The notes below the pieces were generated by a model. The model saw nothing but the letters and a program-made list of their open reading frames with translations, searched no databases and was not told where the DNA came from. Positions 12,249 to 42,719 of a stretch of DNA of 61,621 bases are shown piece by piece; within the stretch, counting starts at the first letter, position 1, and each line of letters opens with the position of its first letter. The stretch comes from a virus (Duplodnaviria; Caudoviricetes), in IMG/VR virus record IMGVR_UViG_3300048930_000318, positions 1 through 61,621 of that record; one strand, 5' to 3'. Both the position numbers and the translations under genes were made by a program.

Positions 12249-13548
12249 TGTCTTCCATCCTTCGGATCAAAGTGGAGATCCTGTTTTTTGCATAGGCAAA
12301 CCGTGTGGGATCGGATTCGATGCCTATCACTTTTCTGTTTAGCTTTGTTGCTTCATATACCGTAAAGCCTACATTTGCAAAGGGATCAAGGATCGTGTGG
12401 TATGCCGCACTCATATCCTTGATAATATCGCGCAGGTATGCTGTAGGTGGGCATCTTGGATGTACTACACCGTCAACCCAACCTTTTGAGCGGTACTGCC
12501 CGTGATTGGGTAGGTTCTGCGATGGGTTGTAGGTATAGTTGTAGTGCTGACACCCACGCACCATGTAGATCATACTGTTTTTGTAGTCTTTACGGGCTTT
12601 TTTTCTTCCGAGGTTCTTGAACTCAAGACAGGCATGGAAGCCCTCTCGAATAAATAGCCCCGCTTTCTGCATAGCCGCCTTGTACTCGTAGGCGGTATCA
12701 ATATGATCACACAACACAACAACCGTACCCCTTACGGCAAGGTATGGTACGATCTTCTCGATCCAGTCTGTTTTGATGTCAGGCGTGGGGTAGGTGAGAA
12801 CAAGCCCCACCGATCTCTCAGGTAGATGGGTCTTGAGGATCTGTGTGTACTCTCCGTTATACACCCTTGTCATTTCACTGCGCTTCACGAGATCCTTACC
12901 TGATCCAACTGTGCGTTGGATGCGTTTCTTCTCATATTGAAACTGCGCCTTTTTCTCTTTGACAAGGCGGATAGCCTCGCGCACAAGGTAGTTTCTCTCT
13001 GCGGTAGAGACAGGTTGACGTTTGATCTTCTCTCTGATCTCGTCTGGGAGGTTCGCAGGTTCCATAAGGCGCTTGATTGTGTTAGGTGATACGTCACGCG
13101 CCTTTGCCATAGCTTGCACAAACTGAGGTACGAGACCTGCTTCGATGGAGTCCTTGTTCTCTTCCTCGTAAGCCTTCTTGCGTAGGGCTAGGGCTTCTGC
13201 GAGTTCGAGGGTATCAAAGTCCTTACGAAAGACGTTCTCAGCGATCTGTAGATCGAGAAGGTGTGTCTTGTCGTCAGGCTCTACAACCAAGCATTTGACC
13301 TTGATACCAAGTTGCTTACAGGCTAGGCGGCGTCTGCGGCCCGTCACGACGATATACATAGTGCGATCTTGGACTTTTCGTTGCATGACTGTGATCGGTT
13401 GGATCTGTCCATCTTTTTTGATGGACTCTTTCAGCCCCTCAATATCGCCGTAGTCTGTGCGGTCATGTGTTCCCCTGATCGTGACGATCTCGTCGGGGTC
13501 TAGGTCAAGGACGACACTATCTTTGGGGATTAGGTTCTGCCGTGTCAT
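12121..13548 (-). CDS. ParB/Srx N-terminal domain fused to a degenerate DNA methyltransferase fold
   Basis: IEGLKESIKKDGQIQPI, VTGRRRRLA, AENVFRKD; C-terminal SVGLVLTYP...ILDPFANVGFT...IGIESD. Confidence 0.8.
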   Translation of the reverse strand: MTRQNLIPKDSVVLDLDPDEIVTIRGTHDRTDYGDIEGLKESIKKDGQIQPITVMQRKVQDRTMYIVVTGRRRRLACKQLGIKVKCLVVEPDDKTHLLDLQIAENVFRKDFDTLELAEALALRKKAYEEENKDSIEAGLVPQFVQAMAKARDVSPNTIKRLMEPANLPDEIREKIKRQPVSTAERNYLVREAIRLVKEKKAQFQYEKKRIQRTVGSGKDLVKRSEMTRVYNGEYTQILKTHLPERSVGLVLTYPTPDIKTDWIEKIVPYLAVRGTVVVLCDHIDTAYEYKAAMQKAGLFIREGFHACLEFKNLGRKKARKDYKNSMIYMVRGCQHYNYTYNPSQNLPNHGQYRSKGWVDGVVHPRCPPTAYLRDIIKDMSAAYHTILDPFANVGFTVYEATKLNRKVIGIESDPTRFAYAKNRISTLIRRMEDNESTEDLDNTGEEPEDGRYDREEDDEIKRDTEGDPPEGTQET

Positions 13549-22220: not shown

Positions 22221-22871
22221 TTACCCTTTCTGGTTTGTTGCTTCACGGTAGGCGATCATACCAAGGATAATACTCCTATACAATTCGATTTCTGTATCAG
22301 ATAGTCCCTCTTCTTTTGCGATTTTTTCTCCATGCTCTTTCCACACCTCAAAGGTGTGAACTTGACACCCCACAGAGATATGAGAGTCAGAGCAGGTGAT
22401 GATATAGCGGTACAAATTAGCATACATAACAGACTCGGTACACAACATATCACCAAAGACACAAGCATTATCATAGACACGAGCCTTACCAGAGACACGG
22501 GCATTATCACATACACTGGCATCACCATAAACACAGGCATTATCATAGACACTGGCATTATCACATACACGAGCCTTACCAAAGACACAGGCATAACCAA
22601 AGACACGAGCATTACCAAAAACAAGCCCATCATCATAGACATAGGCATTATCATAGACACAGGCATCACCAAAGACACGAGCAGCACCAAAGACACGGGC
22701 ATCACCATAGACACAGGCATTATCAAAGATAAAGCAATTGCCATCATGTGAGAGGTTATATTCTTTCTCGATCCAACCTCCCACAAGACCGTCTGAGATT
22801 CGGCGGACTCTCTTTAGAGTCCTATCGAAGATTTGCTTCTCTTCACCTGTAAATTCATATTTTCGTGTCAC
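22221..22871 (-). CDS. Hexapeptide-repeat (left-handed beta-helix) protein, paralog 1
   Basis: GGWIEKE.NLS then tandem A[RC]V[FY][GD][DN] repeats; paralog of 42072-42719; GTG start. Confidence 0.85.
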   Translation of the reverse strand: MTRKYEFTGEEKQIFDRTLKRVRRISDGLVGGWIEKEYNLSHDGNCFIFDNACVYGDARVFGAARVFGDACVYDNAYVYDDGLVFGNARVFGYACVFGKARVCDNASVYDNACVYGDASVCDNARVSGKARVYDNACVFGDMLCTESVMYANLYRYIITCSDSHISVGCQVHTFEVWKEHGEKIAKEEGLSDTEIELYRSIILGMIAYREATNQKG

Positions 22872-22893
22872 GGTTTTACCCTTTCTGGTTTGC

Positions 22894-22953
22894 GTGATCT
22901 TCTTGATCACCGAGGATGTTTTATGTTCTACACCAAGAAAGAGATCCTGTCAA
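22894..22953 (-). promoter_or_regulatory. Sigma70-like promoter with GTGATC-N5-GATCAC dyad
   Basis: TTGACA-17-TAGAAC; nearly identical to 41990-42048. Confidence 0.7.
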
Positions 22954-28200: not shown

Positions 28201-28948
28201 AGCCAAGGTGTACCCCAAAGTCCGTTCAAAGATGGATGCTTCGCACTACTACTTACGATCCAAGCAAGGATGCTTGTTGTTGGCGGTAGCGTGTAAGGAG
28301 ATCCCCGCCTTCCACAAACTTTTGCTTGAATTCTTTCCAAATGCACTACCTTCTGATCTAAGCCATGTCACAACAGAAGAGGTGATGAATTGCTACTTCC
28401 GTGATGTTCGGGCCTATGGAAAGGTATTTGGGACTCGCGTATCCGAACACAACAATTTCGCATCAAACCTCGGCCATATCTGCAAAGATTTCGGTATTGT
28501 CCGTACCTGTCTGCGTTCTGGCGGTGATGCCCGTGATTACATCTTTGAAGAGAAAGCGACACGATACGCCCTTGAGCAAGCGACCTACGAAAGAAACCGA
28601 TACATGACCACAATTGACAAATGGAAAAACGGACACGGACTCGTTGATACAAGCGAGTTTGACCGCGAAGAGGGCGAGACGCAAGAAGAACCGAAGCAAG
28701 TGCATCTGTTCGCGCAGTACCCCCAACAACCAGCCACACAACAAAAAGTGCAAGCAAACGTACAACCTACACAACAAGATGATCTTGCCCGTCATGTTGG
28801 GTTTTATATGTCAGTCTATATGAACGCTGGAAAACAGGGGCCATTTGACGCCTTTGTCTTCACCAAGAAAAAACTCAACATCCAAGACCTCGACTACGCT
28901 TGGGCCTTGGATTGCAAGGCTGCTTTTGACAACTCTTTCTGGGGATAA
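25238..28948 (+). CDS. Replication initiator: AEP-like primase + PriCT-like + UL9/origin-binding SF2 helicase
   Basis: WVCIDID, SNSA..KAHFW, QQHYTSDP (primase-like); ASLGTGKT, LAHRVAL, VIDEADQV, LSAD, SGVSYD, QGACRVR (UL9/CyRepA1-like helicase); alternative start ATG 25331. Confidence 0.8.
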   Translation: MCKRHTDEEIHHQPKKKPQSVATRGFFESLPMKKIRAYRLRCQEIVAKKFVLSPQGYPQKTDKAHPATFNFSPLFWNSIEGLFGILSTLRCDPHSLIIRGNLKEGFSPNNQYRRKIDKPDKAGYVATVEEVDRDWVCIDIDNYRCKTQVDPHNKESLLEAARETLFAHLPQDLHNTSFVVQWSNSAFLDSQTYTFDPHKAKAHFWIMLDREVCGESLRPWLKAIGADSALADTIQQHYTSDPVCEGFTHPLPSEHRVFLVKGERDTLDTSKITTHEIFTTEQYKQRLEQEAQRKIQEAKAREERHVKQEQEQRITYGVEGSYTSRKALAESILNTAIKKIMSARDGNRGKTIFGQSKWIASIASEHRNGLPISYAQTMLESAAVNLAGQSAADLRDYRVSYKNGWSEGESSPQLLDLKVENKPQKITKAQKSKEQKEKAAQEKIANSIFYHYANLSAAQEPCGFSPTPHYMAPLHVAAGITAVRASLGTGKTEVAKALCKKYNSVLWLAHRVALTRNTQERLNEGETQAFSLYLDKEGKLVESKLIVCVDSISRVASQHDLVVIDEADQVLRSVIKRSKNRQASDAIFHKMMGLTIAGGGAKQILLLSADLCDTTLKAYEILFGKEVTNRIDHNWHHPDETWNFHETIDLWRLQLSEDLENNKKIFGFFASQATLIQYEAWIKQHFPSKKVVAIHREAEDEDRDTLESVNKLWKDADVVFVTTSAGSGVSYDVKDDFDAVYVNGYHAPLDFPASEYLQGACRVRHPRSRTIQAYIIESERPLKSLEAMHGEFERREGETLRILRSIGQVEEIRGAVTTTSQIFENAWLLSMLQGEERSHFAAKWICETLLDRQIKITYTTGTGDPKKSKKIQGEMQVAKEAVFIKEIGRILEAKDLTPAEAEPLRGQELKKAQQLEIKKHEAAMFYSQHEDKHTAPEAPTEEILVWDNKGKGRKTIRSLVTSAAFHSARDYNIFQDQHDLVFDTSDKEAKVYPKVRSKMDASHYYLRSKQGCLLLAVACKEIPAFHKLLLEFFPNALPSDLSHVTTEEVMNCYFRDVRAYGKVFGTRVSEHNNFASNLGHICKDFGIVRTCLRSGGDARDYIFEEKATRYALEQATYERNRYMTTIDKWKNGHGLVDTSEFDREEGETQEEPKQVHLFAQYPQQPATQQKVQANVQPTQQDDLARHVGFYMSVYMNAGKQGPFDAFVFTKKKLNIQDLDYAWALDCKAAFDNSFWG
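25279..25318. terminator. Bidirectional terminator-like hairpin in the initiator leader
   Basis: A9-GCCCC-aaa-GTGT-TGCG-ACAC-GGGGC-T6. Confidence 0.7.
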
Positions 28949-28949
28949 T

Positions 28950-29714
28950 ATGCAAACGATAGAACTCTGCTTAGGTGATTGCTTTGACTATCTACCACAG
29001 ATCCCAAGTGGTTCGGTAGATATGATCCTCGCAGATCTTCCCTATGGTACAACCCGCTGCTCTTGGGACGTGGTACTACCCTTTGAAGATCTTTGGAGAG
29101 AGTACAACCGTGTTCTCAAAGAGAGCGGTGCGGTTGTACTCTTTGGTACAGAGCCGTTTTCGTCAGCCCTACGCCTCAGTAATATCAAAGACTACCGCTA
29201 TGATATTTACTGGCAGAAAGATCGGGGTGCTAACTTCCTCTTTGGTAATCGTATGCCCCTCAAGGTTATCGAAACGATCTCTGTGTTTTACAAGAAACAG
29301 CCAACATACAACCCCCAGAAGAGAGAAAACCCCAAGGGGCCGTCAAAAAGACACCTAAGCCGCTATGTGAAGCCCTCCGATAACGTAAAGGATGTCATGG
29401 GGGATTCTTGGAAATTGCAATCTTGGGAAGCGGGGCAGAAGTACGAACCAGATAAACTACTGCCCACCTCTATTGAGTATTGCGCGAGAGAGCAAAAAGG
29501 TAAGGTTCATCCAACGCAAAAGCCTGTGGCCCTGCTCGAACGCCTTATCCTTACCTACACAAACGAGGGTGAGACTGTCCTTGATAACTGTATGGGATCG
29601 GGGTCAACAGGTGTAGCCGCACTCAAGACAAAGAGATCCTTCATCGGTATGGAGAAGGAAGAAAAATACTACATGATCGCACAGGATCGCATCAACGGGG
29701 TAACACCTACATGA
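28950..29714 (+). CDS. DNA methyltransferase (N6-A/N4-C, beta class)
   Basis: DMILADLPYG, HPTQKP, VLDNCMGSGST. Confidence 0.92.
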   Translation: MQTIELCLGDCFDYLPQIPSGSVDMILADLPYGTTRCSWDVVLPFEDLWREYNRVLKESGAVVLFGTEPFSSALRLSNIKDYRYDIYWQKDRGANFLFGNRMPLKVIETISVFYKKQPTYNPQKRENPKGPSKRHLSRYVKPSDNVKDVMGDSWKLQSWEAGQKYEPDKLLPTSIEYCAREQKGKVHPTQKPVALLERLILTYTNEGETVLDNCMGSGSTGVAALKTKRSFIGMEKEEKYYMIAQDRINGVTPT

Positions 29715-30307
29715 AGCCTATCACTATCGAACAACAAAAATTTAAGTGCATAGTGGCTGATCCGCCTTGGGAGGTTAAGCGTGGATCGCCGCAGGGAAGA
29801 CCATTTGGCACACAAATGGCCAGTCAAAATTTACCGTACCCCACCATGTCTGTAGATGAAATTTGCCAATTGCCCGTCCAAGACCTCGCAGACAAAGACG
29901 CGCACCTCTATCTTTGGACTATAAATCGCTATATTGAAGATGCGTATCTTGTGGCCCGTGCTTGGGGTTTCAAGCCTAGTACGTTATTGGTGTGGGCCAA
30001 GACCCCTAAAGGTCTCGGCTTAGGTGGGACTTACGCCTTATCCTCCGAATTCTGCTTATTTTCAAGGCGCGGAACGCTACCCGCGAAGAGAAGAGAAGAA
30101 ACAAACTGGTGGCATTGGAAGAGAAGTAAGCATAGTCAAAAGCCCGAAGAATTCCAAGATATGATCGAGTCTGTCAGTCAAGGCCCGTATCTTGAACTTT
30201 TTGCAAGAAGAAAGCGAGAAGGTTGGTCTGTATGGGGAAACGAAGTTGAATGTGATGTCTTGTTAACCGAGGTGACACCTACATGAAGCCTATCACCATA
30301 GAACAAC
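29699..30307 (+). repeat. 37-bp direct repeats flanking the MT-A70 gene
   Basis: GGT[A/G]ACACCTACATGAAGCCTATCAC[T/C]AT[C/A]GAACAAC at 29699-29735 and 30271-30307. Confidence 0.9.
29711..30286 (+). CDS. MT-A70 family adenine methyltransferase
   Basis: IVADPPW, LYLWT, HSQKP, LELFARR. Confidence 0.92.
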   Translation: MKPITIEQQKFKCIVADPPWEVKRGSPQGRPFGTQMASQNLPYPTMSVDEICQLPVQDLADKDAHLYLWTINRYIEDAYLVARAWGFKPSTLLVWAKTPKGLGLGGTYALSSEFCLFSRRGTLPAKRREETNWWHWKRSKHSQKPEEFQDMIESVSQGPYLELFARRKREGWSVWGNEVECDVLLTEVTPT

Positions 30308-31418: not shown

Positions 31419-31771
31419 CAAACGAAAAAGAGACACTACCGCAATACAGATCTGCAAGATACCACAACGACGTAAAGCGTCGGTTTGTGGCTACACTCCA
31501 ACCTTGTCAACTCGTGACTTCTGGTGACGACTACGACAACAGAGAGCAAGCACAGGCGGCGGCTATCTACTTCTTTGGTGAAGATGCAAAAGCCTCTCTC
31601 CTGCGTGGATCTCACGACGATAAATCGTGGGTATGGAAGGTGACACCCAAGAACTTTCCACCTAACCCAAGGATTGCAGAGATCCAAATGCTCCAATCTC
31701 TTGTGAACCGTTTGACCGACCAGATCGACGCACTGTACTCCGAACTTGATAGCGATGGAGAGGGGCAGTAA
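31415..31771 (+). CDS. Hypothetical protein
   Basis: GTGA overlap and AGGAG RBS. Confidence 0.6.
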   Translation: MTNEKETLPQYRSARYHNDVKRRFVATLQPCQLVTSGDDYDNREQAQAAAIYFFGEDAKASLLRGSHDDKSWVWKVTPKNFPPNPRIAEIQMLQSLVNRLTDQIDALYSELDSDGEGQ

Positions 31772-31772
31772 G

Positions 31773-32924
31773 ATGATACTAGCAGACAATTTAGCCGCAC
31801 TAACAATTCACGGGGATTGTTTGGATGAGATGAAAACACTACCAGACCATAGCGTGGATGCTATCGTTACAGATCCACCTGCGGGTATTGGATTTATGGG
31901 TAAAAAATGGGATCTTGGTAGGGGTGGACGAGACAATTGGATCTCTTGGATGTGTCAGGTTGCATCTGAGTGTTACCGTGTTCTAAAGCACGGCGGTCAC
32001 GCTGTTGTTTGGGCATTACCTCGAAATTCACACTGGACGGCAACCGCTTGGGAAAACGCGGGGTTTGAGGTACGAGATCGTATTGCTCACGCCTTCTCAA
32101 CAGGTTTTCCAAAGTCACATTCTATACAGAAAGCCATCGAAAAAAAACAAGGAGAAGGTGCAGCACAAGAATTTGTGGGATGGGGTACTGCACTCAAACC
32201 TGCAATCGAAGACTGGTGGTTGTTGCGTAAGCCTATAGAGAGTGGGTTGACGGTTGCAGAGAATATGTTGAAATGGGGCGTTGGCGGTATCAACATAGAT
32301 GCTTGTCGAGTTGAAGGATCTTGGAACGGTTCGCCCACTCGCAAGCAGGGTAAGAAAAATGACGTTTTTGGTAAGATCGCGGTGGGCTTGGAGACAAAGC
32401 AAGAAGAGGGTGGGAGGTTTCCATCCAACTTTACCCACGATAATAGCGAAGATGTGGCCATGCTTCTCTCCCAAGATCAGAGAAAATTCTTCAAGTCTTT
32501 GGAGGATACACAAGAAGACAGGGGGCATATCGAATATATCACATCTATTCTTTATGTACCCAAAGCATCAACAGGTGACAAAGAATTGGGGTGTGGTGAC
32601 ATTGAGCCGCGAATAGGCGGCTCAATGTCAGGAAAGGAAACCAGAGACGGTAAGCCCACAAACCACCCCCTGCGCCAAAACTCGCATCCAACAGTGAAAT
32701 CTACAGCCCTTATGCGCTATCTTTGTCGCCTTGTAACGCCACCGCAAGGTATAGTGTTAGACCCTTTTATGGGGTCTGGATCAACAGGTGTGGCTTGTAT
32801 GCGAGAGGGTTTCCGATTCATTGGTATTGAGCAAGATGAACACTACTATAGTATTGCATCTTCTCGCATCAATCACAGCAAGAATATGTACCTGGAAGAG
32901 AAAGGTATAGCAACATGGCCGTAA
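31773..32924 (+). CDS. DNA methyltransferase (N6-A/N4-C, beta class)
   Basis: DAIVTDPPAG, GFPKS, HPTVKS, VLDPFMGSGSTG. Confidence 0.92.
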   Translation: MILADNLAALTIHGDCLDEMKTLPDHSVDAIVTDPPAGIGFMGKKWDLGRGGRDNWISWMCQVASECYRVLKHGGHAVVWALPRNSHWTATAWENAGFEVRDRIAHAFSTGFPKSHSIQKAIEKKQGEGAAQEFVGWGTALKPAIEDWWLLRKPIESGLTVAENMLKWGVGGINIDACRVEGSWNGSPTRKQGKKNDVFGKIAVGLETKQEEGGRFPSNFTHDNSEDVAMLLSQDQRKFFKSLEDTQEDRGHIEYITSILYVPKASTGDKELGCGDIEPRIGGSMSGKETRDGKPTNHPLRQNSHPTVKSTALMRYLCRLVTPPQGIVLDPFMGSGSTGVACMREGFRFIGIEQDEHYYSIASSRINHSKNMYLEEKGIATWP

Positions 32925-33259
32925 AAATGACAGGTGCAGAATGGAGAGACTTCTACACTGATAAAGCCTTCTGGACGGATATATCCCACGACGAAGAGGT
33001 TATTACTATCAACGGAAAGACCGACGATAGTGAAACGTATCTTGATGTAGAAGATACTGATGTTGTCCGTGTAGAGGGCGGTACGGTGTACGAACACGGG
33101 CCTACAGGCGACGAATACGAGCCTACCTGTAGCCTTGAAACGTACATCAAGCGTTGGCGAAAGGCGCAGAAGCAAACAACACTCACTATCAAGATTGACA
33201 AAGCCTCTGAGAAGGCTTTACGAGAGGTTGTCAAGACCCTCGGAGGTAAGATCCTCTAA
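32915..33259 (+). CDS. Hypothetical phage protein
   Basis: 114-aa ORF with AAAGG RBS. Confidence 0.6.
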   Translation: MAVKMTGAEWRDFYTDKAFWTDISHDEEVITINGKTDDSETYLDVEDTDVVRVEGGTVYEHGPTGDEYEPTCSLETYIKRWRKAQKQTTLTIKIDKASEKALREVVKTLGGKIL

Positions 33260-33277
33260 CCCCATAAAGGTTCAACC

Positions 33278-33481
33278 ATGCACAACCCACATCATACCGT
33301 ACTGCAAGTAGCCTCAGTTATCATCTTCTCGCTTACCTTCTTTTTTCTTGGTTACACATACCAAGAATACAAGATGGGAGTCGCTTCTTGGGTGTGGCTA
33401 CCTACCGTCGTTCTTGTTGGCATCGCTTCCTATATCCTCTCCCTCTTCTTTGTTATCCTCTACACCATCCTGCGAGACTAA
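33278..33481 (+). CDS. Small two-helix membrane protein
   Basis: Two hydrophobic segments. Confidence 0.55.
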   Translation: MHNPHHTVLQVASVIIFSLTFFFLGYTYQEYKMGVASWVWLPTVVLVGIASYILSLFFVILYTILRD

Positions 33482-33486
33482 CCCCC

Positions 33487-35241
33487 ATGAAACACATCGA
33501 ACTAGAGGTAAAACAGTACCTCACACTCAAGCGTTGGGAGTCAAAACTCAACGGTGAAGAGTACAAGATCAAGGTCTGCCCCTTCTGCCAGTCAGAAGAG
33601 TGGTCTTTCTATATGTCAGCAAAGACCTCTCAGTACCGCTGTATGAAAGCCTCTTGTGGTGAGACTGGAAACCTTACTACCCTCAAAAAACACCTTGGGG
33701 ATCTCACCGCCAAAGAAGAGAAGCAAGACTCAGGTAAATTCATCTCTGCGGATATGGTCGAGACTTGGCATAATCGACTACTCAACAAACCAGACTACCT
33801 ACAGAAAGTCCTTGATAGAGGCTTCACACAAGAGGCTATCAAGAAATTCCGACTCGGTATCCGCATCCTCGCAGAAGGTGGGCCTGTCTATCTCTGCATC
33901 CCACACCTTGAGAATGGTGTGTGTCGTAACGTCAAGTACCGTATCCTCGAAGATGAAGGGTCTTACTCACCCTCCGATAAGTGGCGCAGGGAAGAGGGAT
34001 ATAAGAGCATCTTGTTTAATGTGGACGCCTTGGATGAAGCAGAAGAGATCTACATCGCAGAGTCGGAACTAGATGCCGTATCTCTCTGGTGTGCAGGATA
34101 CAAAAACGTCGTAGGTCTTACCGTAGGTGCAGACACCTTCAAACCTGAGTGGTTTGACCTGTTCGCCAACCTCAAGAAGATCTATATCTGTCTTGATAGC
34201 GATAATGCAGGTCAGAAGGGCGCACAGGATCTAGCTAGGCGGCTAGGCTTTGCTAGGTGTGTCAATGTGATATGGCCCCTCAAAGACCCCAACAAAGTCC
34301 TAACAGATCTCGGTGAGGATCATCTTCACTTTGCAATCTCCCAAGCCTCCCCCTTCGAGGTTTCTGGTGTTGTCACTATCGAACAAGCCCTCTCAAGACG
34401 GCAAAACAACCTAGATAGTGATCGTCATGGTATTCTCTCCCCTTGGCCCTCTGTCAATCGCCTTCTTGGTAAAGGACTTCAACAGGGAGACCTCACGATC
34501 CTCTCTGCTCGATATAAAGTAGGGAAAAGCACCCTCTCCCTTCAATGGCTTACTTGGCTTGCCTCTCAGGGTATTCCTTCCCTTATGGTCAACCTTGAGA
34601 TGCCTGTACCTCGCCTTATTGACAAGATCGTCCAGTCTGTTCGTTGCAAGTCAGACGATATGATCGAGCCTTTGGACTACACACTCACACGCCAGTTTCT
34701 TCAAGACAAGCCATTCTACTTTCTTGAAGACGGTGAGGGCCGATTCTCCAACGCGGATCGCATCTTTGACGCTATGGAGGATGCCGTCAAACGCTACGGT
34801 ATCCGAGTCGTTGTATTCGACCACCTCCACTACCTCTGCCGATCCATGAATATCCGAGACGAGATCGGACACGTTATGCGCCGATTCAAAGCCTTTGCTA
34901 TGCAGTTTGGGATCTCCGTGATCTTGATTGCACAGCCCCGCAAACTCAACGGACAACGCCCAACATCCGACGATCTCAAAGACTCAGTATCCATCGCAAC
35001 AGACGCAGACTGGATCATCCTTCTCCATCGACTCTCTATGGCATCCGAGACAGACGAATTCGATAGTGAAGGTGATCCAGAAGAACCACAAGAGATTTTA
35101 TCCCCTATCACAGAAGTGATCTTTGATGCTACCCGCTTTCGTAGTGGTGGTCGTGTGAAGCTGTACTACGAAGGTGAAACCTCGACTTTCTTTGAGCAGG
35201 AACACGGACAGCCCCTCAGAAGTGTTGTCCACAAACTATAG
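33487..35241 (+). CDS. T7 gp4/Twinkle-like primase-helicase
   Basis: CPFC Zn finger, TOPRIM IAESELDA and LDSDNAG, KDPN, Walker A ARYKVGKS, FDHLH, IAQPRK. Confidence 0.9.
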   Translation: MKHIELEVKQYLTLKRWESKLNGEEYKIKVCPFCQSEEWSFYMSAKTSQYRCMKASCGETGNLTTLKKHLGDLTAKEEKQDSGKFISADMVETWHNRLLNKPDYLQKVLDRGFTQEAIKKFRLGIRILAEGGPVYLCIPHLENGVCRNVKYRILEDEGSYSPSDKWRREEGYKSILFNVDALDEAEEIYIAESELDAVSLWCAGYKNVVGLTVGADTFKPEWFDLFANLKKIYICLDSDNAGQKGAQDLARRLGFARCVNVIWPLKDPNKVLTDLGEDHLHFAISQASPFEVSGVVTIEQALSRRQNNLDSDRHGILSPWPSVNRLLGKGLQQGDLTILSARYKVGKSTLSLQWLTWLASQGIPSLMVNLEMPVPRLIDKIVQSVRCKSDDMIEPLDYTLTRQFLQDKPFYFLEDGEGRFSNADRIFDAMEDAVKRYGIRVVVFDHLHYLCRSMNIRDEIGHVMRRFKAFAMQFGISVILIAQPRKLNGQRPTSDDLKDSVSIATDADWIILLHRLSMASETDEFDSEGDPEEPQEILSPITEVIFDATRFRSGGRVKLYYEGETSTFFEQEHGQPLRSVVHKL

Positions 35242-35249
35242 GACAGACC

Positions 35250-35369
35250 ATGACAAAAAGAAAAGTTCCGCGATATGATCTCGATGATCTTCTTGAAGAT
35301 CTGACGCCAGAGGATGTTAGCCTTGATTTCGATTGGGGGGCAGATGTAGGCGAGGAGATTGTTGGGTGA
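35250..35369 (+). CDS. 39-aa MazE C-terminal-like peptide (candidate antitoxin mimic)
   Basis: MTKRKVPRYDLDDLLEDLTPEDVSLDFDWGADVGEEIVG; AGGA RBS; GTGA coupling to the next ORF; below the ORF-track length cutoff. Confidence 0.75.
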   Translation: MTKRKVPRYDLDDLLEDLTPEDVSLDFDWGADVGEEIVG

Positions 35370-35548
35370 GAAAGAATTTGATCCCACGCGAGAGTCTGTA
35401 TTGGAAGTACATGAAAATGCGAGAAGGTGCCTTGAATGAAAGAGATAACGCACAAACAGACGAAGAAAGAAAATCAGCAAGCATCGCCGCGTTTGAATTT
35501 AGACTCAAAGCAATAGAAGCGAGAAGGTCTGAGTTAAAAACCTCTTGA
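35366..35548 (+). CDS. Small hypothetical protein
   Basis: GTG start overlapping the previous stop codon. Confidence 0.45.
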   Translation: MRKNLIPRESLYWKYMKMREGALNERDNAQTDEERKSASIAAFEFRLKAIEARRSELKTS

Positions 35549-35599
35549 CATCGCACCTGTCCTTGTGTATAAGAACAAAGCGACGATCAAAGAGATCGT
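35545..35599 (+). promoter_or_regulatory. Sigma70-like promoter with ACGATC-N5-GATCGT dyad
   Basis: TTGACA-17-TATAAG; dyad at 35583-35599. Confidence 0.65.
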
Positions 35600-35622
35600 A
35601 AAATCAAGAAAAGGAGTAAGAT

Positions 35623-35976
35623 ATGTCAAACACTCTAAAGCCGTTCGAGCCTCTGCCAATCAGCGAAGCCCTTCACGCTTTCATCAAAGAGATGATGGAC
35701 AGAAAAAGATCTAACGTCGAAACAATTGAACAGTTAAGCCAAGCAAATACGGCGATTATGACCCATGTATGGGAACAGATTCAAGAGGCGTTTCCAGAAA
35801 CCAAAGGTCGAAATATGGTTTGCAACAGACGTGAGGATGGTTCATACATGGTCTCTTTGATGTATGACAAAAAAGAAATTCCATCTTCAAACGACCGTGT
35901 GCGCTTGCTTTTTGCTGGACTGGAGAGCGAGGGCGCGACTCTCTCTCAGATTCGCGGGATGTTGGAGCGTGAATGA
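35623..35976 (+). CDS. Hypothetical protein
   Basis: AAGGAG RBS downstream of the promoter. Confidence 0.65.
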   Translation: MSNTLKPFEPLPISEALHAFIKEMMDRKRSNVETIEQLSQANTAIMTHVWEQIQEAFPETKGRNMVCNRREDGSYMVSLMYDKKEIPSSNDRVRLLFAGLESEGATLSQIRGMLERE

Positions 35977-36134
35977 AACTCCGCACCGTAGGTATTTTTG
36001 TCAACTACTTTGGACTGTTGCTTGGGGTTATTGGCGTGATCACAGCACGCACAGCATCACAGCAAGTCACCCCTTTGACGGTTGTTTTCGTGAACGCTTT
36101 TCTTATTTGGCTTTGGCTCGTAAAGAAGGATTGA
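35973..36134 (+). CDS. 53-aa membrane protein
   Basis: MKLRTVGIFVNYFGLLLGVIG...FLIWLWLVKKD; ATGA overlap and GGAG RBS. Confidence 0.5.
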   Translation: MKLRTVGIFVNYFGLLLGVIGVITARTASQQVTPLTVVFVNAFLIWLWLVKKD

Positions 36135-36139
36135 AACCG

Positions 36140-36349
36140 ATGTTCGGACATAGAAAAGGGCCGCAGTTCGACCGCTTACGCAAGCTCCTGCGTGATAAGA
36201 CAATCACGACAATGGAGTATCGTCGGCTTGCTAACTGCGAAAGCAACTTTGCTGGCGTAATACAGCACTACGGTTGGCGCAAGACATTGAAGGCTATCTA
36301 TCAGGGATACTATGCAATTCAACACCTTTATTGGGAGATTGAGAGATGA
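36140..36349 (+). CDS. Small hypothetical protein
   Basis: ATG after AAGGA; 3' part of track ORF 35864..36349. Confidence 0.5.
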   Translation: MFGHRKGPQFDRLRKLLRDKTITTMEYRRLANCESNFAGVIQHYGWRKTLKAIYQGYYAIQHLYWEIER

Positions 36350-36389
36350 TGCCCGTCGCAATCATCCGAATCCTCTTGGAGAGCGAATA

Positions 36390-36734
36390 ATGCCAATCGC
36401 AATGGAAATCTTTGTCTGCGGTTTGTTCGGCCTCGCCCTTCTTGGTTCCCTCGGTGCGCTTGGCTGCTTCCTGCAAATGCGTGTATATCAGAACGAAGAT
36501 TGGGAACACGACCGCGAAGTAGGGTGGGCAAGCGCCCACCTCTCTGTACAGAGACAGATATACCAAGACGATCACAACCTGCGCGTGATCGTCGCCGAAT
36601 TTCACCGAGATAAGATCGGTGGACTGATTTGCCCCATCCACGGTCGAGAGGCATACAAAGATGGGGGGCAAGCGTACTTCAAAACACTACGCACATCTAC
36701 TATCTTGATAAAGGAACCTAAACCTGTGCGGTAG
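36390..36734 (+). CDS. Hypothetical protein with N-terminal membrane helix
   Basis: GGAG RBS; hydrophobic N-terminus. Confidence 0.5.
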   Translation: MPIAMEIFVCGLFGLALLGSLGALGCFLQMRVYQNEDWEHDREVGWASAHLSVQRQIYQDDHNLRVIVAEFHRDKIGGLICPIHGREAYKDGGQAYFKTLRTSTILIKEPKPVR

Positions 36735-36752
36735 GTGATATTCAAAAAATCC

Positions 36753-36781
36753 TTGACACGTCCGTCTCCGTAGTGTATAGA
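36753..36781 (+). promoter_or_regulatory. Sigma70-like promoter
   Basis: TTGACA-17-TATAGA, with GTG before the -10 as in the other phage promoters. Confidence 0.6.
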
Positions 36782-36825
36782 AAAGAAAAGCCACTATCGG
36801 CCTTCTCACAACGGAGACCTTCGGT

Positions 36826-39273
36826 ATGAAAGAGCAAATTTACAAAATAGTCAAAGCCCTCTCCAACCAATGCGACGGTGCAGTCAACCGTGATAACGTC
36901 GGATTCAACGCCACACACACACACCTCGGAAAACGCCTTGCCAACCTGCCCATTGAAGACTGGACAGACGAACACTTTTCCTACTGCGCCAACCACCTAC
37001 TCCCCACCTACAAGAATCAGATCGAGGCTATGGGGTTTGAACTGCCAACCTACAAGCAGGGAACATACACCCTACCCTCCGAGATCAACACTCTCTCCCA
37101 AGAAATCGAAAAGAAAAACCTACGGAAGACCACACATCTTCTGCTCTGGAAAGAGCAGCACAACCAATGGTTTCTCAAATTCCCATACAATGCAGAGATG
37201 CTAAAGGATATTCGCCTTATCACACCAAAGGGCGAATTCAACCGACACTTTGAGAAAGAGTGGGCCTTCTCTCGTGCAGCAAGCGAAGACATCCAAACCT
37301 TTTGTAAGAAGTGGGACATCTTCGTTACAACCGAAAATGATGTACGGTTTGACGTATTCATCGAAACCACCGCAAAACTACCCAAAGATGAAGAAAAGAA
37401 CCCCCACCGTATCGAAGAAAAAGACGGAACCTTCCACGTCTTCTTCCCCTACTCTGAGTATCTTGTAAGCGCGATCAAGCGCGTCTTTGGTGCTACGTTT
37501 CGCAACATCGGTGAGAAGTATTGGGTTGTCACACCTTCACCACGTTCTCTCAACGACCTATACAATTTCTGTCTCCATGCTCACCCCGATTTCCGAGACT
37601 ATGCGGGGCAAGTACAAAACGCACTCAAAGAGATCACCGTTGAAAAGGCTAAGATGGAAGCCCTCTCGAAAGCCGTGAACGCAGAAGTGGATCTAGACAC
37701 TTCACGTCTCCGCCTCGAACTCCGACCTTTCCAGAGAGTAGGTGTGCGCTTCTTGATTGATAACGGGTGTGTCTTGAACTCCGACGATCTTGGTGTAGGT
37801 AAGACATGCGAAGCCCTTGCAACTGTAGTGTGTGGCCCAAACCGTCTCCCTGTTCTCGTTGTCACACCCGCATCGCTCAAACTAAATTGGGCAAAAGAAG
37901 CAATCTCTTGGATCAAGGATGTCTCTGTCACAGTTCTTGATAGCAAAGCAAAAGACTTCACCGTCACAACCAAGCAAGGTGAACGTCATACTGTACCTTG
38001 CAACGATTTCAACGCAGAGATCGTTATCGTGAACTATGACATCCTTGACCGCTTCTCTGACCAGATCCTCAACACACCATTCAAAGCAATGGTGATCGAC
38101 GAGTCGCACAATATCAAGAATTACAAGGCAAAACGTACACAGACGGTATTGTCTATCGCCAAGAATATCCGATACAAGTACGCACTCTCTGGTACACCGA
38201 TCCTTAACCGCGCAGCCGAACTACTACCACAACTTGACTTCCTCGGAAGACTCCCCGCTGTTGGTGGCAAGACCAATTTCCTTCGTCGCTATTGTATCCC
38301 AAGCAATAGCGGGTGGGGCACAACCTACGACGGATCACAGAACCTTGACGAACTCCACAAGATCCTCCGTCAAGAGGGTGTCTATATCCGACGCACAAAG
38401 AAACAAGTCCTTACGGAACTCCCAGACAAGGAGCGTGTCACCGTCCCACTCGGATTCGATGCTTCATTCCAAGCCGAGTACAACAAAGCAGAAGCGGACT
38501 TCATCGAATTCCTACGCAAAGACGGGCTACTCAAAAAAGACTTCTTGGAGAGCATCAAACACCTCCCCAAAGAGCAACAAAAAGTAGAGATCCAACGGTT
38601 CCGAGAAGAGAAAGCAGCTAGAGCGCAAAGAGCCGAACACCTTGTCCGTATCCAAGGTCTCAAGTATCTCTGTGCAAAGGGCAAGATGGCTTCTTTCCTT
38701 GCTTGGTGTGAAGACTTCCTTGCCTCTGGTGAAAAGTTGATCGTCTGTGGTATCCACACCGATCTGATCGAGCAGGTGGTTGAGCATCTTTCCTCTTGGG
38801 GTGCGGTCTCGATCACAGGTCAAACACCTCACGTCAAACGGCAAGAGTATGTGGATCGGTTTCAAGTCTCTGAGTTTTGCCGTGTGATTGTTTGCAACTT
38901 GATCGCAGGTGGTGTGGGCCTTACCCTTACAGCATCTTCAAACGTCGCTACTTTCGAGTTTGGATGGGTAGCAGGTCTTCATACACAGATGGAAGATCGC
39001 TCGCTCCGTATGGGTCAGAAGAACGCCGTGACTTGCTGGTACTTCACAGCAAACGGTACGATTGAAGATTACCTGATCTCTATCGTTGAGTCTAAACGGG
39101 CTACAACCGACGCCCTGATCGATGGCACAACCGACAAGCCACAAGCGGGGGTGATCGGCGATCTTACCAAGTGGATGCTTTTGAAGGAAGAGAAGAAAAA
39201 AAGAGATGATGAAAAACGCAAAGAGATCCTAGACCTATATCAACAAGAAGGTATGGAAGTCCTTTTTGATTAG
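36826..39273 (+). CDS. SNF2 helicase with HARP-like domains (SMARCAL1-like annealing helicase)
   Basis: Two FPY..L...I[KR] HARP-like segments; DDLGVGKT, IDESH, SGTP, GVGLTLT, QMEDRSLRMGQ. Confidence 0.88.
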   Translation: MKEQIYKIVKALSNQCDGAVNRDNVGFNATHTHLGKRLANLPIEDWTDEHFSYCANHLLPTYKNQIEAMGFELPTYKQGTYTLPSEINTLSQEIEKKNLRKTTHLLLWKEQHNQWFLKFPYNAEMLKDIRLITPKGEFNRHFEKEWAFSRAASEDIQTFCKKWDIFVTTENDVRFDVFIETTAKLPKDEEKNPHRIEEKDGTFHVFFPYSEYLVSAIKRVFGATFRNIGEKYWVVTPSPRSLNDLYNFCLHAHPDFRDYAGQVQNALKEITVEKAKMEALSKAVNAEVDLDTSRLRLELRPFQRVGVRFLIDNGCVLNSDDLGVGKTCEALATVVCGPNRLPVLVVTPASLKLNWAKEAISWIKDVSVTVLDSKAKDFTVTTKQGERHTVPCNDFNAEIVIVNYDILDRFSDQILNTPFKAMVIDESHNIKNYKAKRTQTVLSIAKNIRYKYALSGTPILNRAAELLPQLDFLGRLPAVGGKTNFLRRYCIPSNSGWGTTYDGSQNLDELHKILRQEGVYIRRTKKQVLTELPDKERVTVPLGFDASFQAEYNKAEADFIEFLRKDGLLKKDFLESIKHLPKEQQKVEIQRFREEKAARAQRAEHLVRIQGLKYLCAKGKMASFLAWCEDFLASGEKLIVCGIHTDLIEQVVEHLSSWGAVSITGQTPHVKRQEYVDRFQVSEFCRVIVCNLIAGGVGLTLTASSNVATFEFGWVAGLHTQMEDRSLRMGQKNAVTCWYFTANGTIEDYLISIVESKRATTDALIDGTTDKPQAGVIGDLTKWMLLKEEKKKRDDEKRKEILDLYQQEGMEVLFD

Positions 39274-39374: not shown

Positions 39375-41981
39375 ATGGAGCCACGACAAAGAGATCGAAA
39401 CTGCTCACTATGCAGTTTAAGCCAGAATTGCTATACACCCTGCCTTTGGGGTGAGGGAGACAAAAGCAGCCCAATCATGCTTGTTGGGTTTGAGGTTGGT
39501 GAGGAAGATGATAAGGCACAAAGAGTCTTTATTGGGGATGCTGGACGTAAGTTCACATACTTACTAGGAAAAAGTGGACTCAAACGCAAAGATCTCTATC
39601 TCACCAACCTCGTCAAATGCTTTCCTGACAAAGAGACACCTAAGAAAAAGCCGCACATTGATGTCTGCAAGCCCTACATCTATCAGGAGATCCACGAAGT
39701 ACGCCCCAAGGTGATCGTTGTCTTTGGTGAACCTGCTACAAAAGCCTTGATCGGTAAGACTTCTAAATTCAAGCACCTTGTTGGATTTCCTGTTTATCAT
39801 ACATTCCATCTTGGGGATGAAGAGTTTGACTGTTGGGTTATACCCACGCACAGCCCCGCCGCAGCCCTTCGACAATGGGAGATCGACGCGCAGATTATCC
39901 GCGCACTTGAAGACGCTCAGGTCTATGCCAAGGGTGAGAAAGCGTACACGCTACCAGAAGCGCCTTACGTCACGATTAAGACCATAGAAGATGCAAGGCA
40001 ATACCTCGGTATGCTTTTGGAACAGAGCGTGATTGTAGTGGATACTGAGACCCTTGGTTTGCGTGTGGCCAAACACGCTATCCTTGACATCGGATTCTGT
40101 TATGACAAGAACCAACCCGCTATCATCCTGCCCCTCTTCGACAAAAAGAAAGGCAACCTCTGGGGCGACCACCTCCCTGAGATCAAACAACTTGTCAAAG
40201 CCGTCCTACTCAACAATAACGCAAAAGTGGGCGGTCACAACTTCAAGTTTGATATGCGCTTTCTCTCTTGGTGGTTAGGTGAAACCCTCTTCATCCCCAA
40301 CGTATTCGATACCCTCACCATGCACCACGTCCTTGACGAAAACAAACCCCACAACCTCACCTTCCTACTTGGCCACTTCTTCCATTGGGAACGCTATGAT
40401 TCGGCAATGGAGCCTTACAAGAAGACAGGAAAAGACTTCGGTGATGCCCCATCAAAAGTCCGTCACCAGTATCTTGCCTATGATGTTCTTGGTGAATTCC
40501 TGCTTTATGAAAAACTCTCACCACAGATCCCAGAAAAAGACCTTGAAACCGTCTATCAAACAGAAGTCGCACTCACCAACTACCTTCTCCCTGTTGAACT
40601 TACAGGTATCCGCTTCAACAAGGAAAAGATGGATGAACTGGTGATCCATAACCGAGACCGCGCAACAAAGGCTTTGACACGGTTACGCGAGATCGCTACT
40701 GACTTCGGTATAGGATCTAAAGAAAAGCCATTCAACCCAAACTCTTCCCAACAACTCGCAAAGTTACTCAAAGATGCGGGGGCTTTGCTTCTACATAAAA
40801 CAGATACGGGTGCAGACTCCACAGGCAAGAACGTACTCAAATACCTTGCCACACAACCCGATCAGCTTGTGGCTGAGATCTCCACTCTCGTCCAAGAACT
40901 CCGTAATGCCAACAAACTCCTGTCCACATACCTTGACGGTAAGCCTGTTGATTGCGGTCTTGACGATGTAGGCGACGTAAATGACAACGAAGATAGGGGC
41001 TTTTTCTTCTATGTGGACGAGGATCTGCGTTGTCGTCCATCCTACAATATCTCCCTCACCGCAACAGGTCGCCTATCCGCAACGGAACCCGCAGTACAGA
41101 CTGTTCCCCGCCTATGGGGTATCCGATCCCTTTTTGTCCCAGACAACGCAAATAGCGTGTTTCTCTCTTGCGACTATGGAAAGATCGAGTTGTGTGTCTT
41201 GGCATGGTGTGCAAACGATCCTGTGATGGCTGACGAGTTGAACCGAGGTATCGATCTCCATGCAAAGACAGCTATCACAAAGCGTCTCAAGAGAGCGCCC
41301 ACAGAGGAAGAGTTCGAGAAGATGCTTGCTGAGTTGGTGAAACTACCAACGTGGAAACAGGAACGCGCAGTAGCAAAGGCTGTGTCGTTTGGCACTCCCT
41401 ACAACATCTCTGCAAAAGGGATCGTAGATGGGAATCCTGACGCCTTTGATGCGGATATGCCCGTAGAGGATCGGATCGAGATCGCACAGGATATGATCGA
41501 TGCTTACTTTGAGCGGTACGAGAAAGTCAAAGAGTACCTTGATCGCCAGTTTGTCGCAGCCCAAAACATCGGATACCTGAGAACATACTTCACCAAGAGA
41601 GAGAGACGGTTCCATGACGCCGTTGCTTGGCTCAATACGGAATGGTCAAAGAATACAAGGCTCCATAACCTCGACAAAAACAACCTGCGTTCTCAAGCCT
41701 GTAACTTTGAGATCCAGTCCACCGCTTCCGATGAACTCACGAGAGCCACAAAGCGGGTATATGAAGGTCTCCAACAGTCCAATATCCCAGACTTCCGTAT
41801 CGTCTTCTCTCTCCACGACCAGTTCATGTTCAACGTCCACAAAGATCATGTAGAGGAAGCAAAGCCTCTTATCCGATCTTGGATGGAAACTACATTTCCA
41901 TCGGATGCTTTGCACAAATTCGAGATCCCATTCAAGATCGATATAGCCGTACAAAGATGGTGGGGTGATAACGAATACTAA
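39375..41981 (+). CDS. polA: Family A DNA polymerase with N-terminal uracil-DNA-glycosylase-like domain
   Basis: CSLC...TNLVKCFP...HSPAA (family 4 UDG-like); DTET and HNFKFD exonuclease; TGRLS, DYGKIEL, AKAVSFG, HDQ. Confidence 0.92.
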   Translation: MEPRQRDRNCSLCSLSQNCYTPCLWGEGDKSSPIMLVGFEVGEEDDKAQRVFIGDAGRKFTYLLGKSGLKRKDLYLTNLVKCFPDKETPKKKPHIDVCKPYIYQEIHEVRPKVIVVFGEPATKALIGKTSKFKHLVGFPVYHTFHLGDEEFDCWVIPTHSPAAALRQWEIDAQIIRALEDAQVYAKGEKAYTLPEAPYVTIKTIEDARQYLGMLLEQSVIVVDTETLGLRVAKHAILDIGFCYDKNQPAIILPLFDKKKGNLWGDHLPEIKQLVKAVLLNNNAKVGGHNFKFDMRFLSWWLGETLFIPNVFDTLTMHHVLDENKPHNLTFLLGHFFHWERYDSAMEPYKKTGKDFGDAPSKVRHQYLAYDVLGEFLLYEKLSPQIPEKDLETVYQTEVALTNYLLPVELTGIRFNKEKMDELVIHNRDRATKALTRLREIATDFGIGSKEKPFNPNSSQQLAKLLKDAGALLLHKTDTGADSTGKNVLKYLATQPDQLVAEISTLVQELRNANKLLSTYLDGKPVDCGLDDVGDVNDNEDRGFFFYVDEDLRCRPSYNISLTATGRLSATEPAVQTVPRLWGIRSLFVPDNANSVFLSCDYGKIELCVLAWCANDPVMADELNRGIDLHAKTAITKRLKRAPTEEEFEKMLAELVKLPTWKQERAVAKAVSFGTPYNISAKGIVDGNPDAFDADMPVEDRIEIAQDMIDAYFERYEKVKEYLDRQFVAAQNIGYLRTYFTKRERRFHDAVAWLNTEWSKNTRLHNLDKNNLRSQACNFEIQSTASDELTRATKRVYEGLQQSNIPDFRIVFSLHDQFMFNVHKDHVEEAKPLIRSWMETTFPSDALHKFEIPFKIDIAVQRWWGDNEY

Positions 41982-42071: not shown

Positions 42072-42719
42072 ATGACACGAAAATATGAATTCACAGGTGA
42101 AGAGAAAGGCTTTAACGGTAGAATTCTCAAGAGAATCCGCAGGATCTCAGATGGTCGTGTTGGGGGGTGGATCGAAAAAGAAGAAAACCTCTCTCACCAC
42201 GGATCTTGCTTTGTATTTGCTAATGCTAGTGTCTTTGGTAATGCTGGTGTCTATGATAATGCTAGTGTCTATGATAATGCTAGTGTCTTTGGTAATGCTT
42301 ATGTCTATGCTAATGCTCGTGTCTATGATAATGCTAGTGTCTTTGGTAATGCTTATGTCTATGATAATGCTCATGTCTTTGGTGATGCTAGTGTCTTTGG
42401 TGATGCTAGTGTCTTTGGTGATGCTCATGTCTTTGGTGATGCTAGTGTCTTTGGTGATGCTAGTGTCTATGATAATGCTCGTGTCTTTGGTGGGATGGTC
42501 TGCACAAAAGATATTATGTATGCTAGACTGTATCGCTATATCATCACCTGCTCAGATTCACATATCTCTGTTGGGTGTCAATCTCACGCCTTTGATTTCT
42601 GGAAAGAACATGGGGAAAAACTTGCAAAAGAGAACAATCTATCAGATACAGAACTTGCCCTATATAAAAGTGTCGTCCTTGGCATGATCTCCTACCGTGA
42701 AGCAAACCAGAAAGGGTAA
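42072..42719 (+). CDS. Hexapeptide-repeat (left-handed beta-helix) protein, paralog 2
   Basis: 18-nt tandem units at about 42220-42490 encoding [ND]A[SYHR]V[FY][GD]; same N- and C-terminal domains as 22221-22871. Confidence 0.88.
   Translation: MTRKYEFTGEEKGFNGRILKRIRRISDGRVGGWIEKEENLSHHGSCFVFANASVFGNAGVYDNASVYDNASVFGNAYVYANARVYDNASVFGNAYVYDNAHVFGDASVFGDASVFGDAHVFGDASVFGDASVYDNARVFGGMVCTKDIMYARLYRYIITCSDSHISVGCQSHAFDFWKEHGEKLAKENNLSDTELALYKSVVLGMISYREANQKG

Follow-up and report, generated by a model that had tools for sequence, protein, structure and literature searches.

A 39-aa peptide encoded directly behind the primase-helicase gene of a phage is, as judged from sequence comparisons, genuinely homologous to the C-terminal segment with which AbrB-type MazE binds MazF, and we consider it fairly probable that this peptide is a minimal phage-borne anti-MazF antitoxin against host MazF/PemK. 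The computational checks able to refute the anti-MazF reading were all passed, and sequence comparison and structural modelling both appear to support it.

Results

The phage record and the peptide gene

The DNA analysed here (referred to as the window) spans all 61,621 bp of an IMG/VR virus record, which is estimated to be 65% complete. Structural genes of the phage encode tape measure, tail, baseplate, and gpU-, gpV-, and gpI-like proteins, and its genes for DNA metabolism encode the primase-helicase, a SNF2 helicase, a family A polymerase fused to uracil-DNA glycosylase, a class II ribonucleotide reductase (RNR), ThyX, RecA, and SbcCD-like proteins. The best match of the DNA polymerase among GenBank phages was only 27.5% identical, and the phage is therefore distant from any cultured one. 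A blastn comparison of positions 33000-38000 with GenBank phages gave no match, the primase-helicase found no match in IMG/VR, and the single tRNA (tRNA-Trp) was uninformative on the host. Other features of the record were also seen. Five DNA methyltransferase genes are present (8629-9180, 12121-13548, 28845-29714, 29711-30286, and 31746-32924), two of the MT-A70 and three of the N6_N4_Mtase type, one of them with a ParB-N domain; this number suggests a heavy investment in restriction evasion. In the polymerase (39375-41981, + strand) the uracil-DNA glycosylase domain is N-terminal. YdcK beta-solenoid repeats occur in two proteins (22221-22910, - strand, and 42072-42719, + strand), the second of which matches PHROGs of unknown function.

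The peptide gene (35250..35369, + strand) encodes the acidic product MTKRKVPRYDLDDLLEDLTPEDVSLDFDWGADVGEEIVG, in which 4 residues are K/R and 12 are D/E. The initial annotation of this DNA had claimed a 39-aa ORF of this sequence, and the ORF is present with an ATG of its own; no in-frame start was present 5′ of the ATG at 35250. It had further claimed a ribosome-binding site and translational coupling. The first was found, in that an AGGA Shine-Dalgarno-like site (35240..35243, + strand), read from the sequence, lies 6 nt before the ATG. As to coupling, the upstream gene is closely stacked on the same strand at a spacing of 8 nt, and the two do not overlap. That upstream gene (33388..35241, + strand) encodes the primase-helicase, with Pfam matches to DnaB_C, Toprim_2, and Zn_ribbon_DnaG and a match to PHROG 239, DNA primase/helicase, at E 8.5e-71. 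Its TAG stop (35239-35241) lies under the ribosome-binding site of the peptide, and because the gene ends only 8 nt upstream, there is no space for an AbrB/SpoVT domain before the peptide. Among the listed sequencing runs, none is on record as RNA; one run (X3, see below) is labelled RNA-Seq but was rated probably DNA.

Likeness of the peptide to the MazE C-terminal segment

When the peptide was searched with phmmer against all PDB chains, four sequences were returned at E≤10, of which the top three (7d2n_E, 1mvf_D, and 1ub4_C) were of the MazE type, with E-values of 0.0041-0.0045. The MazE alignments were ungapped, placing peptide residues 4-36 on MazE residues 48-80 (of 82), and counting from the alignment gave 13 of 33 identical positions, among them RK.P, L..L..D.TPE, DWG, and E. 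In NCBIfam a single family was matched, the MazE equivalog NF007312 (E 7.8e-4), again over profile positions 48-80 of 82. The ungapped likeness to the E. coli MazE C-terminus, which the initial annotation had described, was reproduced in both searches at E-values of about 1e-3, and its statement that the likeness is confined to the toxin-binding half agrees with matches that span MazE positions 48-80 only. With 19.8 bits against a full-protein cutoff of 113 bits, the peptide misses the NF007312 cutoff for the whole protein; the score is this far below the cutoff because the tail alone is present. A Pfam search of the peptide gave 0 families at E≤10, as expected given that the Pfam MazE model covers the N-terminal domain, and a PHROGs search gave no significant match.

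We also built a C-half HMM from 16 full-length MazE proteins of other organisms, with the window sequence excluded, and searched it, as a control for multiple testing, against all 1721 six-frame stop-to-stop segments of at least 20 aa. The peptide frame was the sole match (E 3.1e-18, 61.8 bits) and the runner-up had an E-value of 2.2; these 16 proteins had scored highest of all against the peptide, and this score is therefore somewhat inflated, whereas the E. coli-based matches are independent of that choice. In a 23-row alignment of the family, all 11 invariant columns are kept in the peptide (P7, T19, P20, F27, D28, W29, G30, D32, V33, G34, and E36), as are the nearly invariant Y9, L11, L14, L15, and E21, at an overall identity of about 50%. 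The highest identity was 21 of 32 positions, to the C-halves of two MazE relatives, L039 and L107. One position counts against the anti-MazF reading: just before the last invariant E, the peptide has E35 where the family has R or K.

Absence of an AbrB half and of MazF from the window

The initial annotation had stated that the DNA-binding AbrB half of MazE is missing and that no MazF is recognisable in the window, and both statements were borne out. When the full record was searched with PF04014, the one match, within the ribonucleotide reductase gene, was a sub-threshold chance match of 11.8 bits, and an HMM of the subfamily N-half reached a best E of 2.3 against the 1721 segments of the window; neither search showed a remnant of the AbrB half, whether 5′ of the peptide gene or in the rest of the window. 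PF02452 (PemK) gave 0 candidates over the 61,621 bp (estimated 65% complete), and a subfamily MazF HMM reached a best E of 2.4 in all frames of the window. The initial annotation had named a decaying remnant of a full mazEF operon as the finding that would speak against an antitoxin mimic; the flanks were searched, and no trace of an AbrB half or of mazF was found.

By the usual definition, a MazE protein has an N-terminal AbrB/SpoVT domain and a cognate mazF immediately downstream. The peptide has no such domain, and no mazF follows it within the 65%-complete record. As judged from the sequence, and with its score below the family cutoff, the peptide is therefore outside the MazE family in the strict sense.

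Bacterial and metagenomic relatives

A search of 1.84 billion representative proteins returned five at E≤1e-3, all of 39-55 aa. That these short representatives form a family of stand-alone peptides was considered and rejected, as several of them trace back to full-length genes that are broken or were given a wrong start: P0003 corresponds to loci L053/L054, and P0002 resembles the full-length L039. In the 90% cluster of P0002, this 46-aa protein is grouped with P0008, a membrane-like protein of 412 aa to which it has no likeness; P0008 looks like a clustering oddity of the collection.

Pattern scans yielded further loci. In metagenomes 169 of 359 pattern matches were confirmed and 80 of the 169 were kept; in genomes 69 of 83 were confirmed, giving 65 loci. 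Canonical mazE-mazF pairs made up 127 of the 145 bacterial and metagenomic loci kept. Such a pair consists of an AbrB-type N-half (WGNSLG.RIPK) with a P.Y.L..LL...TPE.....FDWG.DVG.E tail, followed by the MazF gene, usually with a 4-nt overlap; Pfam PemK_toxin was found in all 13 downstream genes sampled and Pfam MazE_antitoxin in all four full-length relatives sampled. Of the remaining 18 loci, five had an AbrB half without MazF, eight had MazF without an AbrB half, and five had neither, several of them owing to cuts at contig ends or visibly broken N-halves. Truncated MazE C-halves in bacteria appear to be mostly relics, which was counted against the anti-MazF reading. The named genome loci were mainly from Alphaproteobacteria (for example Azospirillum, Nitrospirillum, and Stellaceae), although the search pattern, FDWG[APD]DV, biases this taxonomic list.

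These FDWG-type MazE-MazF pairs (L002-L145) are the closest sequence relatives of the peptide and have the motif P..Y.L..LL...TPE.....FDWG.DVG.E in common with it. Their MazE proteins are of about 80 aa, with an AbrB half, a mazF overlapping by 4 nt, a high-GC genome, and R/K at the position noted above; the phage peptide, in contrast, has E35 and neither the N-half nor the mate. GC content was 0.44 for the cassette that carries the peptide gene (described below), 0.48 for the window, and 0.64-0.69 for the most similar bacterial loci, and the cassette is therefore not a fresh capture from those high-GC lineages. There was one relative of low GC, L051 (0.43), which is identical to the peptide at 19 of 32 positions.

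Several unusual loci were observed in these scans. In L001 (1692-1859) and L081 (5001-5162), a 55-aa stand-alone MazE-tail ORF overlaps the grpE stop in an hrcA-grpE operon on an alphaproteobacterial chromosome; no AbrB half or MazF was present nearby, and its cluster has seven members, one of them on 15 contigs. This ORF may be a bacterial orphan mini-antitoxin. In two Capsulimonadaceae genomes (L138, 4995-5591, and L143, 5028-5612), a protein of about 195-199 aa carries the MazE-tail motif (FDWGPDVG) N-terminally, and Pfam gave no match for its other ~170 aa. In L053, L054, L076, L078, and L079, an upstream stop cuts the AbrB half and the downstream MazF looks intact; these loci are either natural N-truncated MazE proteins with MazF or fresh pseudogenes.

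A 296-bp cassette present in some relatives and missing from others

Contigs from four metagenome runs of four studies (X1-X4; labelled wastewater, biofilm, and anaerobic digester) were compared over positions 34700-36000. The comparison delimited an accessory cassette of 296 bp (35239..35534), with TA on both sides, that comprises the peptide gene and most of a second ORF (ORF2). Contigs bearing the cassette were found in X1 (record 6), X2 (record 16), and X3 (record 21), and in part in X4 (record 26). One X3 contig, from a relative that lacks the cassette, joins 35238 to 35535 with 296 bases skipped, and each of the runs X1-X4 has loose ends at 35240 that pass immediately into AAAAACTCTTGACA-type sequence. 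Across the 3′ end of the primase-helicase gene, the relatives differ mostly at third positions. Since close relatives exist without it, the cassette is dispensable. Presence and absence among close relatives in four runs of four studies is what accessory counter-defence genes typically display, and the comparison may be read in that way; a dispensable cassette could equally be junk DNA, which we counted against the anti-MazF reading.

Directly 3′ of the cassette, a promoter-like element (TTGACA, 17 nt, TATAAG; 35545..35573, + strand) was read from the sequence. The consensus of the loose ends has TTGACA in the cassette-less relatives as well, and in those phages the primase-helicase stop, which is TAA there, abuts the TTGACA-17 nt-TATAAG element. 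An automated promoter scan omitted the element at 35545-35573, as its second hexamer ends in G.

Among the variants listed for the peptide ORF were V6F (35265) and G39E (35365), both non-synonymous. Three protein variants are on record, namely that of the window, one with G39E, and one with G39E and L11R, which differ at one or two residues. The L11R change, carried by a related contig (P0007), falls on a nearly invariant position and was also counted against the anti-MazF reading.

ORF2 (35366..35548, + strand) has a GTG start and encodes 60 aa; an alternative form of 45 aa would start from the ATG at 35411. Both forms were reported by the gene caller, that of 60 aa on a related contig (P0016) and that of 45 aa on the present record (P0017). 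The GTG overlaps the TGA stop of the peptide gene (GTGA), so that the two are translationally coupled, and a GAGGAG Shine-Dalgarno-like site (35352..35357, + strand), also read from the sequence, lies 8 nt 5′ of the GTG at 35366. ORF2 had no Pfam match, and no relatives were found for it except near-identical copies. By eye, a P..L[IY]W motif pointed to a decayed mazF N-terminus; this candidate was rejected, as hhalign against a MazF profile gave a probability of 0.06% and Pfam gave no match.

Occurrence in other phages

N-truncated MazE homologues in phages, a search for which the initial annotation had proposed, were looked for in GenBank phages and in IMG/VR, and no second stand-alone peptide came to light. 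The peptide had no tblastn match at E≤1 in 50,697 GenBank phage records, five of which contain full-length MazE-like genes with 29-37% identity to the L039 MazE. In IMG/VR, the family patterns matched 217 stretches, none of which was confirmed, and a back-translated DFDWGADVGEE pattern gave 0 matches; the record of the window itself may be outside the range of the IMG/VR scans. A broad pattern (TPE-6-DWG) gave at least 80 IMG/VR loci, and six true MazE-like loci (E≤1e-7) were among the matches listed; of these, five are full-length and the sixth has a different N-half, so that a stand-alone tail was not among the six. The locus with the different N-half, L153 (viral contig, minus strand), combines a tail resembling that of MazE (tail profile, E 2.4e-11) with an N-half that by eye is Phd/YefM-like, which would be a case of antitoxin domain shuffling in a virus. 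A protein search for near relatives found only the cluster of the peptide itself, and in one for longer relatives none of the 25 candidates scored at E≤10, a result that says little for or against. The stand-alone MazE tail is thus rare among the phage sequences searched, and this rarity was counted against the anti-MazF reading.

Predicted complex with a MazF dimer

Structure prediction of the peptide bound to dimeric MazF was another check proposed in the initial annotation. For the model, which drew on alignments A2 and A3, the peptide was combined with a pair of MazF chains from L039, whose MazE is one of the two closest relatives of the peptide. The complex scored 0.68 (0.70, 0.68, and 0.66 in the individual runs) versus 0.11 for the best of three controls; the score mark is reached by 116 of 157 solved complexes and by 2 of 215 mismatched pairs. 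The runs agreed in at least 90% of contacts, with partner pLDDT of at least 69. In the models, the contacts with both MazF copies extend over peptide residues 6-20, 22-29, and 33-36 and are best defined at Y9, L11, L14, and L15. Because the modelled MazF is a stand-in from an unrelated bacterial contig, and because MazE-MazF complexes have already been solved and the pass may reflect memory of them, the prediction shows likeness to MazE-MazF rather than binding by the present copy.

Discussion

Proposed role of the peptide

In E. coli the MazE tail is described as wrapping around the MazF dimer (PMC3281143, citing Kamada et al. and Li et al.), and the same source, after Li et al., describes a peptide of 23 residues from the MazE C-terminus that on its own binds the dimer and inactivates both active sites. 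The phage peptide would be such a tail, that is, the MazF-binding part of an AbrB-type MazE minus its DNA-binding and dimerising head. Its expression, target, and biological role, as we infer them, would be the following. The peptide gene would be transcribed early, together with the replication genes. In the manner of the MazE C-terminus, the acidic peptide would then wrap across the interface between the two subunits of a host MazF/PemK endoribonuclease dimer and would block its RNA cleavage. A mazEF-type defence would be triggered when infection stops the resupply of the labile host antitoxin, and MazF blocked in this way would cut neither phage nor host RNA. Since the AbrB half is lacking, the peptide is expected to be monomeric, to leave the mazEF operator unbound, and to bridge no two MazF dimers, so that no MazF2-MazE2-MazF2 hexamer would be built.

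Comparison with known systems

The initial annotation had treated a stand-alone MazE tail as something new, which does not hold. AimX (51 aa) of Bacillus phage 3T and the C-domain of YosL are reported to be MazE C-terminal homologues without the N domain; on co-expression, either one neutralises MazF, both shield the phage against MazEF defence, and a lytic 3T mutant without both is restricted by MazEF (10.1101/2023.04.27.537455). These findings are restated in a later report (10.1101/2025.11.23.689978). On its sequence, the present peptide fits the definition of the AimX/YosL-C kind: it is phage-encoded, given the tail, baseplate, primase-helicase, DNA polymerase, RNR, and ThyX genes around it, and, like AimX/YosL-C of phages 3T and SPbeta, it has homology restricted to the MazF-binding C-part of MazE, with the N domain absent. 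Moreover, yosL is described as part of an operon of replication genes (10.1101/2023.04.27.537455), and the present gene directly follows that of the primase-helicase. The differences are in lineage, context, and evidence. AimX and YosL derive from B. subtilis MazE, whereas the present peptide derives from the AbrB-type (E. coli-like) lineage; AimX is linked to the arbitrium switch between lysis and lysogeny in a temperate phage, whereas the present gene has no such context and sits in a 296-bp indel cassette; and the activity of AimX/YosL was shown by experiment, whereas the present peptide is known from sequence and model. In the PDB search of the peptide, a B. subtilis MazE chain was absent even at E≤10. 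This result points to a MazE lineage other than that of B. subtilis, and the origin of the peptide is therefore probably independent of AimX/YosL, which would make it a separate invention of the same trick.

With E. coli MazE (PDB 1UB4 and 1MVF; NF007312), the peptide aligns without gaps over positions 48-80 and has the TPE, DWG, and hydrophobic positions in common; unlike E. coli MazE, it is without an AbrB/SpoVT N-domain and an adjacent mazF, and it belongs with the FDWG.DVG.E subfamily and not with the E. coli C-terminus. Other phages are also described as carrying only the antidote half of a host toxin-antitoxin defence, as with the DarG-like NADAR proteins of T-even phages, which are presented as orphan antitoxins (PMC11825919), and the annotated MazE, YefM, and TacA genes of cyanophage S-CREM1 (PMC9964418). 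Those antitoxins are whole proteins or enzymes, whereas the present peptide is the toxin-binding segment alone. Within the literature searched, from which subscription-only papers were outside the scope, no AbrB-type MazE tail was found as a stand-alone phage gene.

Alternative explanations

The anti-MazF reading was weighed against other explanations. It has in its favour the ATG and AGGA of the peptide gene, the strand and position of the gene behind the primase-helicase, and flanks free of any remnant. Unlikely, in our estimation, although it deserves the most attention, is that the ORF is an inert relic: a mazEF fragment acquired by illegitimate recombination and trimmed to the 3′ half of mazE, which would be a dispensable insert and useless even if translated. 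The absence of the 296-bp cassette from close relatives fits a relic of this kind, as does L11R in P0007, and no similar peptide appeared in the 50,697 GenBank phage records or in the IMG/VR scans. Truncated C-halves in bacteria and metagenomes also look relic-like (broken N-halves in L053/L054 and L076/78/79; odd upstream sequence in L114 and L117), and one or both partners are missing from 18 of 145 loci, in some cases owing to contig ends. A relic, however, would hardly be expected to be trimmed exactly to the functional segment and provided with a start codon and ribosome-binding site of its own, with nothing recognisable of the AbrB half or mazF alongside; nor would it be expected to keep all invariant positions of the family at about 50% identity and a GC content that matches the phage and not the high-GC relatives. 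Intact copies, furthermore, are present in contigs of four studies, with three protein variants one or two residues apart.

A second explanation, to which we assign a lower probability still, is that the peptide is functional and has another target, being part of a two-gene module with ORF2, or acting on a MazF/PemK domain within a larger defence protein, or serving as a decoy for the MazE protease. The arrangement of the two ORFs lends itself to a module: the GTGA at the junction is a 4-nt overlap as in most mazE-mazF relatives, the peptide is acidic and ORF2 is basic (14 K/R, 10 D/E), the two travel together in the cassette, and one variant among those listed, 35392 G>A, is synonymous in the ORF2 frame (codon read by eye). 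Yet ORF2 has no family, no MazF likeness, and no distant relatives, and nothing ties it to toxins, whereas the conserved residues of the peptide are those of the MazF-binding segment and are predicted by the model to be used at the interface.

Somewhat less probable again is that the 296-bp unit is a mobile two-gene counter-defence cassette, or a toxin-antitoxin-like module of a new, miniature type for which a MazE tail has been reused. As a two-gene cassette, its peptide may disarm nucleases with MazF domains, fused ones included, and its ORF2 may hit a second step. If this were true, trimmed antitoxin tails would be a general, overlooked class of phage anti-defence proteins below 50 aa, having arisen independently in the MazE lineages of the Gram-positive (AimX) and the Gram-negative type.

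Last, a chance open frame with a coincidental likeness to MazE might be suspected from the very short ORF, from runs of which none is on record as RNA, and from Pfam and PHROGs searches that gave no significant match, but it is highly improbable and effectively refuted by the family profile, which singled out this one frame, by the independent E. coli MazE model matches, which align to the same 33 positions, and by the start codon and ribosome-binding site in place.

Significance

The anti-MazF reading therefore is the one we carry forward. If the peptide is active as such, phages would have reduced a type II antitoxin to the tail that binds the toxin for a second time and independently in evolution, this time from the AbrB-type MazE lineage and in an uncultured wastewater or biofilm phage. 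This would suggest that the strategy of AimX is a general one and not peculiar to Bacillus, would support the view that mazEF is a real barrier to phages in other bacteria too, and would mean that anti-defence genes can hide under the usual length of gene calling. The natural 39-aa sequence is a ready-made candidate MazF inhibitor, and relatives with and without the cassette constitute a natural experiment on the benefit that the cassette brings to the phage.
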